From Patescibacteria group bacterium (GTDB lineage: Bacteria; Patescibacteriota; UBA1384; 2-12-FULL-50-11), in contig BOKZ01000001.1 in the NCBI GenBank assembly GCA_016861245.1, forward strand, positions 615,006 through 679,005: a stretch of 64,000 nt of DNA. The letters run 5' to 3'. The translations under genes and the position numbers were made by a program. A model generated the notes under the pieces. It was not told the origin of the DNA. It worked only from the letters and a program-made list of their open reading frames with translations, and ran no database searches. This document shows positions 45,016-51,448 of this stretch, piece by piece. Each line of letters starts with the position of its first letter. The first letter of the stretch is position 1.

Positions 45016-45088
45016 CCCCAAAGCGTGCTTGGGGTGGGGGTGAAGGGGGTAGGGGCAGCGCTTCGCAAGTAGCACCCCCTACCCCCTT
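45016..45088. repeat. GC-rich G-tract palindromic repeat element, copy 1
   Basis: CCCCAAAGCGTGCTTGGGGTGGGGGTGAAGGGGGTAGGGGCAGCGCTTCGCAAGTAGCACCCCCTACCCCC. About 85% identical, in inverted orientation, to 51366..51448. Confidence 0.6.
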
Positions 45089-45142
45089 CTATAAAAATTG
45101 AGTCTTTGGTTGAACAAAATTTTTGTAAGTTTTTAAGTAACA

Positions 45143-45179: not shown

Positions 45180-45734
45180 TTAACCAAGTAAGTCAGCTTC
45201 TTTGCGAGCTAACATGTAGCGACGTAAAGCAACCGCTAGGGTTGTTAACGCACCCGGAAGGATAGCAGCTTCCGCACCAGCCTTTGGTAAGGTGGTGACA
45301 GTCTTGCTAACTACCACTTTGTTAGCACACTTCGCAGCAGCTTTAGCAGCGCTGGCGCTCGAAGACGAGCTAGCAGCGGAACTGGCTGAAGCAAAGGCAC
45401 TCGGACAATCCGCCGTCTGAGTTACGGTGTTACCACCGCTTGTTGCAGACGAAGAACTTGAGCTAGAACTCGAAGAGCTAGAACTCGAAGACGAGCTTGA
45501 GCTAGACGAACTCGAACCGCTAGAGCTAGACGAGCCGCTTGAAGCAGCCGAACTAGCAGAAGCACCGGCACCAGCAGAAGCTGATACGCCACCAACACTA
45601 GCCGAAGCAGCGCTTGAAGAGCTAGCAGACGAGCTTGAGCTCGAAGAGCTAGAACTTGAAGCAGCGGCAACTAGCGCAGGGCTAGTAAAGGCTACTGTTA
45701 AGGCAACTAAGATGGAAACTAATATATATTTCAT
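45180..45734 (-). CDS. serine-rich repeat surface protein with C-terminal LPxAG-type sortase sorting signal
   Basis: Signal peptide MKYILVSILVALTVAFTSPALVAA. About 100 residues of near-pure Ser/Ala/Gly. C-terminal TLPKAG, then a hydrophobic stretch, then RRYMLARKE (cell-wall-anchor architecture). AGGAGAT RBS before MKYIL. Confidence 0.6.
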   Translation of the reverse strand: MKYILVSILVALTVAFTSPALVAAASSSSSSSSSSSASSSSAASASVGGVSASAGAGASASSAASSGSSSSSGSSSSSSSSSSSSSSSSSSSSSSSATSGGNTVTQTADCPSAFASASSAASSSSSASAAKAAAKCANKVVVSKTVTTLPKAGAEAAILPGALTTLAVALRRYMLARKEADLLG

Positions 45735-45880
45735 TATATCTCCTATTATCATCTCACTTGCCCTAAGGCAAGTGTGCTTATATTTTCATTCACTTTTCAG
45801 ACTAATCTCGACTTCTAATTAGTCGGAAAAGAAATGTTCCGAGGCACAGGTTTTAAGGCCTGCACCTCGGAAAGGATGTT

Positions 45881-46633
45881 CTATCCTCCTGCCGCTGCTG
45901 CCGAGCTGGAGCTCGACGATGACGACGAAGAGGAAGAACTGGAAGAGCTTGAGCTCGAAGACGAGCTCCCGCCCGCGCCACCTGCACCGCCGAAAGCAAG
46001 AGCTGCAACGTTGAACGTATTGCCCTTGCCCAGCTGGGCATTGAAGGAGACGCCGCCGATCACCGGCGAGATCACCGTCGGAGCGCCCAGGTTGGCGATG
46101 TGTTGCTGCTGGGTGGGCAGCAACATGACGGGAATGTACTTCGGCACTTCGACCGGCCGATCGACCGGCACGTAGACCGGCACTTCGACCCGTCGTTCGG
46201 GACCAGGTACCGTCACTCGGTACTCGCGAACCAACGTGCGTTGGTACGTCAGCGTTCGAGTCTCGGTTTTCACCGCCGACCGCTGCCAGATCAGGTTGTT
46301 GCAAGCAACAATCTGAAGCGGCAGATCGGTCTTGCGATCGCAGAGAACCTGGCGACCAGCGAGCGATTCGTACTTGAACTCGTTACGGTTGCGGTAGTGA
46401 ACCCAACCGTACTCGCCCTGACGACCGGCACGTCGGTACGTGCCCTCGTTGCTCACCGGAAGTCGCGAGTAGGACCATTGGTAGTCCTTGGAGAGCAGAA
46501 GGTCTGGGCCTTCCTGGTACTCTCGGACGAACTCCCGAGTTCCAGAACTCGTTGACGGGTCAATGCTCTGCGCACCAGCGAGGCTGGCACAGATCAGAGC
46601 GGCAATGACGAGAGGGGTGTGGATCAGTTTCAT
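45881..46633 (-). CDS. secreted hypothetical protein with C-terminal poly-Ser tail (GC-rich islet)
   Basis: 250 aa. Signal peptide MKLIHTPLVIAALICASLAGAQS. Val/Pro-rich repeats (VEVPVYVPVDRPVEVPKYIPV). Ends with GGAGGAGG + S24. Local GC is about 60%. Confidence 0.55.
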   Translation of the reverse strand: MKLIHTPLVIAALICASLAGAQSIDPSTSSGTREFVREYQEGPDLLLSKDYQWSYSRLPVSNEGTYRRAGRQGEYGWVHYRNRNEFKYESLAGRQVLCDRKTDLPLQIVACNNLIWQRSAVKTETRTLTYQRTLVREYRVTVPGPERRVEVPVYVPVDRPVEVPKYIPVMLLPTQQQHIANLGAPTVISPVIGGVSFNAQLGKGNTFNVAALAFGGAGGAGGSSSSSSSSSSSSSSSSSSSSSSAAAAGG

Positions 46634-46634
46634 C

Positions 46635-47807
46635 TTAGTTCTCCTCGCTCAAGCGGAAGACGAGAGTTCGCTCTCGTCCGTCGGCGTCGATCAGTGTGAT
46701 CGTCGCTCCAAGGAAGCGCTTGATACTTCCCCAGGCTATCGCTTCGTGGCGATCGCCGCTTCGGCGCAACATCAGCGGGTGGTCTTTGTCGTCGAGCCTC
46801 AGTACCGCTGTAAACTGCCTGGAGTCACTCAACGTCAGTACCACTTGATTCCGACGGGAGGATAACTGGATCTCAGTTACCTCCGGCGCGAACGTGTGAC
46901 GACGTGCATCTCCGAGTAGTTGCTGCTCGGTGGCGTTCAGCTCTGAACGGAGGAAGTCGAACTTCTGCTCCGAACTTGTCTGCATCGCACCAACAGTAAC
47001 AGCGCAAAACTCGACTGGAGGCTGGTTAGCACCGGCCGTTCCAGCGTTACCTGCGTTACCGACGTTTGCACCGGTTGGAAAACCACCGGGCAAAGCGGTG
47101 TTGCCTGTCTGCGTAGTCGGCGGCTGGTTAGCCGGTCGACCTTGCAGGGCAATTTGGAACTCCTCAAGCGAAGTAAAGTTCCGAATCGTTCCGTCCGGCA
47201 TCTGAGCCGTGTATGACTGAACGACTGGATACATACTTCCACCCGCGCCGGCCGTAGCCAGGCGAGCTTGCTCGTCAGCGGCCATTTGGAGAAATTGGCG
47301 GATATCGAGACGAATGAACGTCGCACTCCCCCACTCCGTACGGCTCGTACGAACCTTGATCTGGTTGATTCCAAGATCTAGATCGCTGACGGCGATGAAC
47401 GGATAGTCGCCAACCACGCCCTGAGCGCCGCTGGGTCTACCTCTCACCACCCTGCCACCTTCGACCTTCCGCCACTCGACTAACTTGTCGTTGACGTAGA
47501 TTGTGTGGTCGTGAGCTGGTGAGCTGTTCGTGAAGGCTTTCACCTTCAGCAGAACTTTGTCACCAAACCAGACCGAAGTCTGAGTGGTGGGATCCCAGCT
47601 CGTAAAGTAAGTCGGTTGATCGCCCTTGACGATGTAAACGTCGAAAACGACCTTGACGGCCGAAATCGGACGTTCTTGCGTTTGGGCGATCCGGGCGTTG
47701 ATACCCGAGCTGATTGCTCCGAAGAGCAACGACTCGAGCAACTGTGCCTTTGCGAACGTTGGGGCAATGGCAAGAACCACCGCCATCAGAATTGCGGATT
47801 TCTTCAT
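46635..47807 (-). CDS. secreted hypothetical protein (GC-rich islet)
   Basis: 390 aa. Signal peptide MKKSAILMAVVLAIAPTFAKAQ. A Gly/Asn/Ala-rich linker in the middle. No family recognised. Its stop is 1 nt from the start of the next gene. Confidence 0.55.
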   Translation of the reverse strand: MKKSAILMAVVLAIAPTFAKAQLLESLLFGAISSGINARIAQTQERPISAVKVVFDVYIVKGDQPTYFTSWDPTTQTSVWFGDKVLLKVKAFTNSSPAHDHTIYVNDKLVEWRKVEGGRVVRGRPSGAQGVVGDYPFIAVSDLDLGINQIKVRTSRTEWGSATFIRLDIRQFLQMAADEQARLATAGAGGSMYPVVQSYTAQMPDGTIRNFTSLEEFQIALQGRPANQPPTTQTGNTALPGGFPTGANVGNAGNAGTAGANQPPVEFCAVTVGAMQTSSEQKFDFLRSELNATEQQLLGDARRHTFAPEVTEIQLSSRRNQVVLTLSDSRQFTAVLRLDDKDHPLMLRRSGDRHEAIAWGSIKRFLGATITLIDADGRERTLVFRLSEEN

Positions 47808-48073
47808 CTTTGTATCTCCTGTGCGTGCATTCCGCGGATCGCGGTGACGCTCTTGTCAGCGCCATCTCAGCCAGGAAGAGGGAAGGAGGGAAACTGTCGA
47901 GGTCGAGCAAGCTCAGCCTGTAATGACAGCTCTCCCTAATCCCAGCCGAGAGGGCACCGACAAACAGAAACTACAAAGACATATACTATTACTCTCTCCA
48001 ATCCACTCGCAATCTCATCGGTAGATATTAATTGCGAGCGGGTTGGAGATGGCGAGACGAGCTCGCCGAGGAT

Positions 48074-48092
48074 GTTGGTGGAGGCGCCGGGA
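48074..48092 (-). repeat. 19-nt direct duplicate of the tmRNA-like gene 3' end (ATTCCCGGCGCCTCCACCA on minus strand); att-like
   Basis: Identical to 48131..48149, 38 nt downstream of the tmRNA-like 3' CCA. This is the kind of duplicate left by site-specific integration at tRNA/tmRNA 3' ends. Confidence 0.55.
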
Positions 48093-48126
48093 ATACACCG
48101 TAACTGTGTGATCCCCGCCGCTCCAA

Positions 48127-48264
48127 AGGCAAATCTTGGTGGAGGCGCCGGGAATTGAACCCGGTTCCAAAAAGAGAAACACGATGTCGTTGGTTTTTGT
48201 TTAGGCATTTTCCCAACTTGAGCTACCACGCTCAGACTTCGCTCTTACCCTCTCTGTCGAACCC
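48127..48264 (-). ncRNA. ssrA: tmRNA (ssrA)-like gene comprising only the tRNA-like domain and P2 helix (138 nt; no tag reading frame found)
   Basis: The minus-strand 5' end GGGGGCGUAAGGGUUCGACAGAGAGGG matches the tmRNA 5' consensus (compare B. subtilis GGGGACGUUACGGAUUCGACAGGGAUGG). The 3' end AUCGUGUUUCUCUUUUUGGAACCGGGUUCAAUUCCCGGCGCCUCCACCA matches the tmRNA T-arm/acceptor/CCA (compare AUCGAUGUUUCUGGACGUGGGUUCGACUCCCACCGUCUCCACCA). The 5' GGGGGCG pairs with the 3' CGCCUCC. The body is far too short for pseudoknots or a tag ORF. Confidence 0.55.
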
Positions 48265-48483
48265 TTACGCCCCCACTGCTTGGGTACCAAAAACTGCCAC
48301 TGCTTTCCAATTCGCCTCATCAGCATTAATCGGAACAATCGAGACAAGGTTCCAGCCCCGTTCTGACATTTCATCGAAGGAAATTGGTTCTTCTGCAAAC
48401 TGCAAGTCTCTGACTCGCAGACAGACGTTTTTCTCGCTGTCCACTGTTGCAACTATTGGTAGGGTTCTGTATTGCATATTCAC
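48265..48483 (-). CDS. hypothetical small protein (72 aa) abutting the tmRNA-like 5' end
   Basis: MNMQYRTLPIVATVDSEKNVCLRVRDLQFAEEPISFDEMSERGWNLVSIVPINADEANWKAVAVFGTQAVGA. Balanced composition. Not SmpB. Confidence 0.35.
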   Translation of the reverse strand: MNMQYRTLPIVATVDSEKNVCLRVRDLQFAEEPISFDEMSERGWNLVSIVPINADEANWKAVAVFGTQAVGA

Positions 48484-48916
48484 TCCAATCAGCTCACGGT
48501 ACAGGCGGTATTAATGTAACCGCTCGTTCATGGGCTAGTTGGAGAGAACGGATTGTTAAAGTGTGCCGCTATGAACGAAAGCTCTTTGGACATTCGTCGC
48601 ACGGCAGGCTTCTTGCGAAGCGATTGCACTATATAAAGGAAGTTAGATACCTACGAGCGGTTGTTGCGACGACGCTACGTTGGATACGTCCCACTGGGAG
48701 CGCAACGCTACGGTGTAATTCGAAACATCCAAACGTAAGTAAAATAAAAAGCCGTGGTAGACAGAACAACTACTAGAAAGTAGGTTCCGCTGCGCACTAC
48801 CGATGCGATCTCACGACTGTTTCAACTTCTTTTTTGTTTTGGTGCAATACACTTTTTGAGTGTGCACGAACAATAGCATATGCTAGTTAAGATGTCAATG
48901 AATGTGAGGCAAATTT

Positions 48917-51335: not shown

Positions 51336-51365
51336 TTATCATTTGTTATATTAGCCATTTTTTAT

Positions 51366-51448
51366 GCAGGGGACAGGGGGTGCTATTTGCGAAGCGCTAC
51401 CCCTATCCCCTGCACCCCAACCCCAAGCACGCTTTAGACACGGGGTTG
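51366..51448. repeat. GC-rich G-tract palindromic repeat element, copy 2 (inverted relative to copy 1)
   Basis: GCAGGGGACAGGGGGTGCTATTTGCGAAGCGCTACCCCTATCCCCTGCACCCCAACCCCAAGCACGCTTTAG. Its reverse complement aligns with 45016..45088. Confidence 0.6.

Follow-up and report, generated by a model that had tools for sequence, protein, structure and literature searches.

Transfer-messenger RNA (tmRNA; gene, ssrA) is nearly universal in bacteria, and pseudoknots and a tag reading frame are treated as its hallmarks, their necessity having been debated since mutagenesis work in E. coli. On the minus strand of a 64,000-nucleotide (nt) stretch of contig BOKZ01000001.1 from a Patescibacteria group bacterium (hereafter, the window) lies an ssrA-like gene of 138 nt (48137..48274). 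An original prediction, made from the letters alone, had seen in this gene either a decayed ssrA left at an integration hotspot or an unusual tmRNA derivative. Which of the two is it? The comparisons described below, which rest on sequence and predicted structure, lead us to read it, with a probability of about 0.6, as a genuine, selectively maintained, and drastically reduced tmRNA of a Patescibacteria (Saccharibacteria-type) lineage with a genome of ~0.68 Mb.

The 138-nt gene and its homologues

Read on the minus strand, the gene spans 48274..48137, begins with a canonical tmRNA 5' end (GGGGGCGUAAGGGUUCGAC), and ends with ...GGGUUCAAUUCCCGGCGCCUCCACCA. The original prediction had correctly recognized a minus-strand tmRNA-like gene of 138 nt but had placed it at 48264..48127, an interval shifted by 10 nt at both ends. 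A covariance model search of the termini, proposed at the time as a check, gave a clear match: Rfam model RF00023 scored the gene at 75.2 bits (E = 2e-27; gathering threshold, 47) over model positions 1 to 374, with both ends matched and ~274 internal model positions reduced to 42 nt in the Rfam alignment. This is the sole Rfam match in the window, permissive threshold included, and the 10 kb beyond each window edge yielded no other tmRNA. The tRNA-like domain is complete. In RNA numbering, G1 to G7 pair with C128 to C134 in a 7-bp acceptor stem, as had been claimed, and the stem includes a G3·U132 wobble equivalent to G3·U70, the alanine-identity position. The D-loop analogue GGGUUCGAC, of the GGNUUCGAC type with its GGA motif, occupies positions 11 to 19, the T-arm with a TΨC-type loop occupies positions 111 to 127, the discriminator is A135, and CCA (136 to 138) is encoded in the gene. 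The P2 helix joins ~19-40 to 87-106. Folding of the 138-nt RNA, a second proposed check, gave a minimum free energy (MFE) of −53.4 kcal/mol (z = −3.7).

The region beyond P2 is where this RNA departs from a standard tmRNA. Pseudoknot PK1 and usually PK2 to PK4 are expected there; instead, the 42 to 50 nt distal to P2 fold as two nested, covarying hairpins. Hairpin A (48219..48234, minus strand; RNA 41-56; UGAGC-GUGGUA-GCUCA) stands in place of PK1. Hairpin B (48189..48217, minus strand; RNA 58-86; GUUGG-GAAAAUGCCUAAACAAAAA-CCAAC), with its A-rich loop at 48212..48194, is located where the resume region normally is. PK2 to PK4 and helix 5 are gone, and a small three-way junction replaces everything distal to P2. 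The gene therefore has no pseudoknots, as predicted, but its description as a tRNA-like domain plus P2 only was too spare, since two conserved internal hairpins are present besides.

Homologues were sought with a pattern made of the tmRNA 5' end, a gap of 70 to 100 nt, and the tmRNA 3' end, run against one representative genome for each of 185,579 species. Among the 13 loci returned (individual loci and contigs are given here by L numbers), Rfam identified miniature tmRNAs (mini-tmRNAs) matching both ends of the model; the carriers were six Patescibacteria genomes and a small number of others. A family-specific pattern applied to metagenomes added nine further loci, all mini-tmRNAs of 135 to 144 nt, and one more family member was found on a 159-kb IMG/VR contig (L030). 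Taken together, the genome, metagenome, and viral scans yielded about 13 distinct homologues of 135 to 144 nt, from other Patescibacteria and from two phage-like contigs. The other carriers are labeled Saccharimonadales, Saccharibacteria, Patescibacteria group, and Berkelbacteria. Given these labels, the gene neighborhood of the window, and its closest match in the genome collection (L007, "MAG: bacterium isolate DTUPAT3," where MAG is a metagenome-assembled genome; syntenic, 87 to 97% nucleotide identity), the organism is an ultra-small bacterium of the Patescibacteria/candidate phyla radiation (CPR).

Thirteen distinct sequences align to one structure. Its consensus comprises an acceptor of 7 bp, a P2 of 14 bp in three segments with a recurring CCAAG/AGCAA internal loop (which resembles E. 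coli helix 2), a T-arm of 5 bp, a hairpin A with a 4- to 5-bp stem and a GUGGUA or RUGGUG loop in which UGGU is invariant, and a hairpin B with a 5- to 6-bp stem and an A-rich loop of 19 to 24 nt that recurrently reads AAAUGC... / ...RACC. Compensatory double-sided changes were found in 27 of the 34 pairs, compared with 9 to 18 in slid controls and a mean of 17.6 in shuffled alignments. Standard pairs filled 89.2% of cells (43 to 54% in slid controls), the covariation score was 0.60 (no more than 0.18 in slid controls), and none of 500 shuffles attained the observed value for any covariation measure. The signal extends to the individual parts. P2 (helices 2 to 4 of the consensus) is retained as had been claimed, with compensatory changes in 12 of its 14 pairs; the T-arm is 98.5% paired, with covariation; the hairpin A stem (helix 5 of the family consensus) has such changes in all four pairs and is 95.9% paired; and the hairpin B stem (consensus helix 6) also covaries. 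MFE folds of single sequences give the same layout in most members. On a family covariance model (R1), members score 94 to 143 bits and other short tmRNA-like sequences no more than 67; the window gene scores 135.9 bits and is present there as a single copy.

Helices were not specified in the search patterns. The motifs GGGG, GGNTTCGAC, and GGTTCRATTCC were fixed, as was TGGTRSC in the second pattern only. G3·U70 nevertheless occurs in 13 of 13 members, including six metagenome sequences whose search pattern left U70 unforced, and UGGU is also invariant in the seven members recovered by the pattern without that motif. Two segments are complementary to the UGGU of hairpin A, namely, the ACCA that ends the RNA and the RACC conserved at the foot of loop B on its 3' side. 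A UGGU:ACCR tertiary pairing is possible; its bases are invariant and so lie outside the reach of the covariation test.

Could so short a gene be simply a pseudogene, formed by internal deletion of a full-length ssrA at an integration hotspot and no longer functional? About 274 of the 374 model positions are gone, no tag frame is conserved, recombination is active at the locus, and isolated internally deleted look-alikes do exist, one in a Burkholderiaceae MAG (L010) and one with an assembly gap (L014). A relic of one deletion would not, however, be common to several lineages and covary across them. Four members (L012, L017, L018, and L028) have no flanking genes in common with the window, and their chromosomal settings include a position between uvrB and uvrA (L017), one near efp on a 629-kb scaffold (L018), and one near uvrC (L028), with an acyltransferase gene also among the neighbors. 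The architecture is kept in these genomes, compensatory changes occur in every helix, replacement parts included, and the 30 to 40% divergence of the homologues speaks against recent horizontal copies of one sequence. We consider decay scarcely credible. Because the architecture is conserved in distant genomes with strong covariation, we favor a maintained gene over a relic, and of the two options originally offered, it is the reduced tmRNA derivative that the family supports, with more kept than a tRNA-like domain and P2.

Other short tmRNA-like genes came to light in the same searches. L010, L014, L019, and L011, none of them from Patescibacteria, were considered as members of the family and rejected: the family model gives them 47 to 66 bits, whereas every member reaches at least 94. 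The L010 gene (2507-2649; 143 nt; 118 bits on RF00023) resembles a betaproteobacterial tmRNA with a large internal deletion and may be a MAG assembly artifact or a pseudogene. L019 (3850-3972) and L011 (2357-2483), both from Anaerolineae MAGs, and L031 (10684-10809), from IMG/VR, form a second mini-tmRNA type of 123 to 127 nt with full Rfam model ends and a common internal motif, GCGNGUAGCG.GAAGGCSCA, which may be a phage- or prophage-borne reduced tmRNA. Short tmRNA-like genes of 117 to 136 nt with other internal architectures occur in L032 (2413-2529) and L029 (1727-1851), IMG/VR contigs of 176 kb and 36 kb, and in a Saccharibacteria MAG (L008, 2263-2398). In large phages and in Saccharibacteria, reduced tmRNAs seem to have a wider distribution than the searchable literature indicates.

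Tag frame, proposed rescue route, and partners

The A-rich loop of hairpin B is the only candidate mRNA-like segment of the mini-tmRNA. In the window genome this single-stranded loop contains GCC-UAA (48207..48202), 11 nt past hairpin A and with AAAAU just before it; the spacing matches that between PK1 and the resume codon in E. coli. GCC-UAA is a possible one-codon frame that would give an Ala-Ala product in the window genome. The prediction that neither a resume codon nor a tag open reading frame (ORF) is present is not literally correct for this genome but stands for the family, since no tag frame running from a resume codon to an in-frame stop is conserved among the 13 members.

ARAGORN called a tmRNA at 48137..48319 with a 13-residue tag, AKSERGSSSWENA. 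We rejected this tag as an artifact. In this call the gene begins 45 nt upstream, within a strain-specific block described below, and the frame passes through covarying stems. The tag is called only where that block is present; ARAGORN made no call in strains L002 to L006, which have the same internal sequence, or in the rest of the family.

Should GCC-UAA be read, the gene would encode a fully competent minimal trans-translation RNA that resumes at GCC (48207..48205), stops at UAA (48204..48202), and adds Ala-Ala. The position of the codon after hairpin A, in a single-stranded loop and preceded by AAAAU, speaks for such an RNA; GCC-UAA is kept in L007 and L030, with a nearby GCU-UGA or GUU-UAG in L027, L026, and L028; and two-residue (Ala-Ala) tags have been reported for Fermentibacterota tmRNAs (PMC11915505). 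Conservation across the family nevertheless points the other way. L012 and L017 have GCC-UAC, the loops of L018, L020, L021, and L023 lack any stop triplet, and L017 has no stop triplet at all 3' of position 31. Stop triplets occur in 7 of 13 hairpin B loops, which is not an enrichment (9.6 expected from shuffled loops), and the register of the putative codon shifts among members. We think it improbable that the RNA works in this way.

The maintained, conserved, and structured 138-nt tmRNA of several Patescibacteria suggests a stripped-down rescue of stalled ribosomes. In the route we propose, the mini-tmRNA would be cut from a longer transcript by tRNA-processing enzymes and charged with alanine by alanyl-tRNA synthetase (AlaRS), SmpB and EF-Tu would bring it to the empty A site of a stalled ribosome, and the nascent chain would be passed to the alanyl mini-tmRNA. 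The known determinants of alanylation, EF-Tu binding, and SmpB binding all lie in the tRNA-like domain; we infer charging, SmpB-dependent entry, and peptide acceptance because that domain is conserved with all of these determinants intact. E. coli tmRNA tolerates replacement of PK2 to PK4, which are dispensable in vitro, and a stable hairpin can functionally replace PK1. The A-rich loop may then enter the mRNA channel, where in the window genome one more codon (GCC) and the UAA could be read, so that the chain would end in Ala-Ala. Stop codons are absent from many family members, and release is therefore probably independent of a tmRNA-encoded stop and might be achieved by an ArfB-type hydrolase or by peptidyl-RNA drop-off followed by Pth. 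Proposals for tag-less mitochondrial tmRNA run along similar lines (PMC11915505).

Several features of the loci bear on expression and processing. In L023 (3870-4293), L024 (5484-5907), and L027 (1268-1668), the mini-tmRNA lies within tRNA arrays (Ile-UAU, Thr-UGU, and Leu-UAA or Val, Leu, and Thr across the three) with spacers of 3 to 6 nt, which implies cotranscription and RNase P-type maturation. A CCA-adding enzyme gene is present in the window genome. The only sigma-70-like match between cysS and the mini-tmRNA gene, TTGACA-17-TATTGT with TG (48870..48898, minus strand), lies just after cysS; it is a consensus match only, and the count of such matches is not above shuffle expectation. Upstream, in the strain-specific block, an orphan ORF of 70/72 amino acids (aa) (48265..48483, minus strand) has its TAA stop inside the tmRNA, at RNA positions 8 to 10, so that 5' maturation of the tmRNA would leave the ORF mRNA without a stop. 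The ORF has no homologues outside its own cluster, no viral relatives, and no Pfam match. The curiosity of an mRNA left without a stop by tmRNA maturation has also been described for Carsonella smpB (PMC4131195).

A number of observations weigh against a maintained tmRNA devoted to rescue. No smpB was found in the window or in any family-member locus (tblastn with E. coli and B. subtilis SmpB) or, in Pfam listings, within 10 kb of the window edges, a total of ~84 kb of the ~685-kb genome. The search patterns account for part of the invariance of motifs. Of the 185,579 representative genomes, those of only a few species matched the strict pattern, so either the mini form is rare or clade restricted or the pattern is too strict. 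Two members, L024 and L030, are on phage-like or IMG/VR contigs, and an accessory or mobile role is possible. In a database search with B. subtilis SmpB, the best 120 matches were all Bacillaceae and so uninformative for the window genome.

These points raise the question of whether the mini-tmRNA is an accessory, mobile-derived RNA that coexists with a normal ssrA and, lacking a tag, competes for SmpB, AlaRS, or stalled ribosomes in the manner of the mycobacteriophage DS6A RNA that consists of a tRNA-like domain (TLD) only. Phages of these bacteria could be the source of such an RNA or could share it with their hosts. TLD-only RNAs have been reported as tmRNA inhibitors (PMC4131195). Besides the 159-kb IMG/VR contig, members are found on a phage-like contig with a tRNA array (L023/L024); L024 carries a GP88-family gene, several PHROG matches, a radical-SAM gene, and a protein with a ribosomal L7/L12 C-terminal domain. 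Mini-tmRNAs of other types are on viral contigs L029, L031, and L032, strain-variable DNA adjoins both ends of the window gene, and its segment has been exchanged between lineages. Against this, the position of the gene on the chromosome is constant among the strains and extends to the sister species, its neighbors elsewhere are housekeeping genes (uvrA/B, uvrC, and efp), and in the window it is not flanked by prophage genes. An RNA that acted purely as an SmpB decoy would have no use for the covarying P2 and two extra hairpins. Further viral copies were found neither with the family pattern in IMG/VR nor by blastn against 50,697 phage genomes. A minority of family members is probably phage borne, and for the family as a whole we hold an accessory role to be a lesser possibility.

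For the maintained tmRNA itself, a stronger claim can be made only tentatively and somewhat short of conviction, namely, that a clade of Patescibacteria has a pseudoknot-free RNA of ~138 nt as its only tmRNA and rescues ribosomes by alanine transfer alone (Ala-Ala in some species), with no encoded tag and often no encoded stop. If so, the mini-tmRNA would be the bacterial equivalent of the tag-less system of mitochondria and would set the minimum of RNA required for SmpB-dependent rescue; PK1 and the mRNA-like domain would have the invariant GUGGUA loop and the A-rich loop as their substitutes.

Recombination around the gene

We compared the window with a set of strain-level contigs, of which L001 to L006 have an identical cysteinyl-tRNA synthetase and L033 to L036 have a 390-aa protein in common. 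The 138-nt gene is present in all of them, the sole difference being one single-nucleotide polymorphism in the T-loop (A versus G). The DNA on either side is variable. A strain-specific block of 200 bp (48278..48477, minus strand) abuts the 5' G of the gene; in its place L002 and L004 have 15 bp, and L003 has an unrelated 183 bp.

At the 3' end, an exact direct repeat of 20 nt, ATTCCCGGCGCCTCCACCAA, occurs at 48155..48136 and 48094..48075, 61 nt from start to start with 41 nt between. The first copy (48136..48155, minus strand) consists of the last 19 nt of the gene (3' half of the T-loop, T-stem, 3' strand of the acceptor, and ACCA) and 1 further nt. There is no third copy in the window, and none of 100 shuffles gave two matches. 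The original prediction had noticed this duplication but reported its size and spacing inexactly, as 19 nt repeated 38 nt downstream at 48092..48074. The 41-bp spacer (48135..48095) and the second copy (48094..48075) together form a strain-polymorphic unit of 61 bp (48075..48135, minus strand). Related genomes were compared for an empty site, as had been suggested, and one was found: the unit is present in the window, L001, L034, and L035, and in a diverged 59-bp version in the sister species L007, and is precisely missing in L002 to L006 and L033. It aligns with the last ~45 nt of the gene as a degenerate copy whose T-loop carries an insertion of 14 nt, and its predicted fold is an acceptor/T-like minihelix of ~12 bp ending in ACCA (−26.7 kcal/mol; z = −3.2, and z = −3.6 for L007).

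Is the repeat the classic footprint of an integrase? As at attachment (att) sites in the 3' ends of tRNA and tmRNA genes, it starts in the T-loop, where integrases typically have their targets in tRNA genes, the displaced copy shows degenerate extended similarity, and empty-site strains exist. To this extent the claim of an integrase footprint holds. Unlike att sites, however, the two copies enclose 41 bp and neither an integrase nor an island; no integrase-like ORF was found among the neighbors, and the GC-rich cassette lies outside the repeats. Nor do the repeats bound a distinct island, since the variation runs from 47853 to 45305, past a 222-bp leader. A reconstructed attP junction (P-core-P') had no match in viral contigs. 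An origin of the unit by tandem duplication fits only in part, because the spacer aligns with the gene but with the 14-nt insertion and many mismatches. The 61-bp unit is consistent either with a scar left at the T-loop position by site-specific recombination or with partial duplication, long ago, of the 3' end of the gene, and it is an event separate from the mini-tmRNA gene itself.

Beyond the unit, a conserved leader of 222 bp (47853..48074, minus strand) separates the tmRNA gene from the cassette and is 97 to 98% identical across strains with different cassettes. A GGCGAG/CUCGCC hairpin lies in this leader, as does an inverted repeat of 18 bp, CTCCAACCCGCTCGCAAT / ATTGCGAGTGGATTGGAG, at 48048..48031 and 48013..47996, and the leader folds at −44.1 kcal/mol (z = −5.0). 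The inverted repeat had been predicted, as one of 16 bp at 47968..48016; it is real, although it is longer and lies at 48048..47996. The variable cassette (45305..47852, minus strand) begins after the leader. A GC-rich block does follow the gene, as predicted, but the repeat does not delimit the cassette, which starts ~220 bp further on. Its GC content is 57 to 58%, against 47% (56.6% over 45753..48074 and 58% over the first two ORFs; 47.3% for the window), and it does encode two proteins of secreted type with signal-peptide-like N termini, of 390 aa (47807..46635, minus strand) and 250 aa (46633..45881, minus strand), as predicted. A third gene, most of which lies within the cassette, encodes a Ser-rich, LPKAG-anchored protein of 190 aa (45752..45180, minus strand). 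The cassette proteins have no Pfam matches. Other strains carry nonhomologous genes here: the cassette of L003 to L006 has unrelated genes for proteins of 370 and 306 aa, also GC rich, and has in common with the window only the C-terminal LPKAG-type anchor of the third gene.

The segment from tmRNA through leader to cassette (45305-48274) is 95 to 97% identical to L007 403-3500, and the mini-tmRNA gene is 97.1% identical, whereas prfB and pth are 87 to 90% identical. Because of this difference, the segment has evidently been exchanged recently between lineages. Since variable DNA adjoins both ends of the gene, cassettes are swapped, and the segment is more alike between lineages than are core genes, the locus is, to judge from the alignments, a recombination hotspot for a variable surface-protein cassette, without the classic signature of an island.

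The low-complexity surface protein at the end of the cassette (45180-45752, minus strand; L003, 5777-6271) has a signal peptide and is Ser rich in the window and Asn/Ser rich in L003; its LPKAG-type anchor and transmembrane tail are conserved, only the last 48 residues being common to the strains. A sortase gene lies just past the left edge of the window (L037). An intergenic, GC-rich hairpin element of 81 nt occurs twice with 88% identity, at 45020-45100 (plus strand) and inverted at 51356-51435, so that the copies flank the 6.3-kb recR-cysS-ssrA-cassette segment. The copies differ, yet the 14-bp stem stays paired (GAAGGGGGTAGGGG/CCCCTACCCCCTTC versus GCAGGGGATAGGGG/CCCCTGTCCCCTGC); the element could be a small RNA, a terminator-like element, or an inversion substrate. 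The window further carries rplJ, rplA, pth, ybaB, prfB, cysS, recR, topA, dprA, rplK, and nusG, with type IV pilus genes, a sortase, glycolytic enzymes, a ClpB/C-type ATPase, and the CCA-adding enzyme farther out. Neither ARAGORN nor Rfam found a tRNA gene in the window; tRNA genes cluster just beyond both edges (L037 and L040).

Comparison with known systems

A natural, covarying tmRNA of 138 nt would show what evolution keeps on minimization: the tRNA-like domain, P2, a hairpin that replaces PK1, and a short A-rich loop. It would make rescue without tagging and without a tmRNA-encoded stop testable in bacteria, and the locus offers a tmRNA gene as a landmark for the exchange of surface-protein cassettes in episymbiotic bacteria. 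There are consequences for annotation as well. ARAGORN misses or misannotates mini-tmRNA genes, automated tools will label them tmRNA even though the RNAs lack the pseudoknots and the conserved tag frame, and statements on completeness or on a "missing tmRNA" in candidate-phyla genomes may be affected.

Beyond a single sentence in a 2025 tmRNA database paper, searches of its supplement and of the literature found no description of the architecture or distribution of the mini-tmRNA. That sentence says that the tmRNA of GTDB species 9FT-COMBO-53-11 sp001772805 "may lack" a tag frame (PMC11915505). It suggests that an exhaustive search had found nothing else in at least one such genome. From accession ranges, we suspect that this species is the L018 genome. 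The paper gives no structure, family, or distribution (PMC11915505), whereas the present comparison describes a covarying family across several genomes and some phage-like contigs.

With canonical SsrA (RF00023) the mini-tmRNA shares the alanine-type acceptor with G3·U70, the GGNUUCGAC D-loop analogue, the T-arm, ACCA, and a P2 with a CCAAG/AGCAA-type internal loop. It differs in length (138 versus ~350 nt), in lacking PK1 to PK4, helix 5, and a conserved tag frame, and in having two hairpins in place of a region of ~270 nt. The GCC-UAA of the window would give the same Ala-Ala product as the Fermentibacterota tmRNAs; those are otherwise ordinary as far as the database paper states (PMC11915505), whereas codon and stop are not conserved in the mini-tmRNA family.

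Forms without a coding sequence (CDS) are also known, among them the jakobid and oomycete mitochondrial tmRNA (RF02544), the ~65-bp plastid forms of Mallomonadaceae, and the TLD-only RNA of mycobacteriophage DS6A, for which rescue without tagging or titration of SmpB has been proposed (PMC11915505, PMC4131195). Like the mini-tmRNA, these organellar and phage forms keep the tRNA-like domain and have no recognizable tag frame. Unlike it, they are either a tRNA-like domain of ~65 nt alone or permuted and in two pieces, whereas the mini-tmRNA is a one-piece, chromosomal, bacterial RNA, larger and more structured than the TLD-only RNA of phage DS6A and the ~65-nt forms of some plastids, and what sets it apart from all of them is the length of its P2 and a three-way junction that is conserved and bears an A-rich loop.

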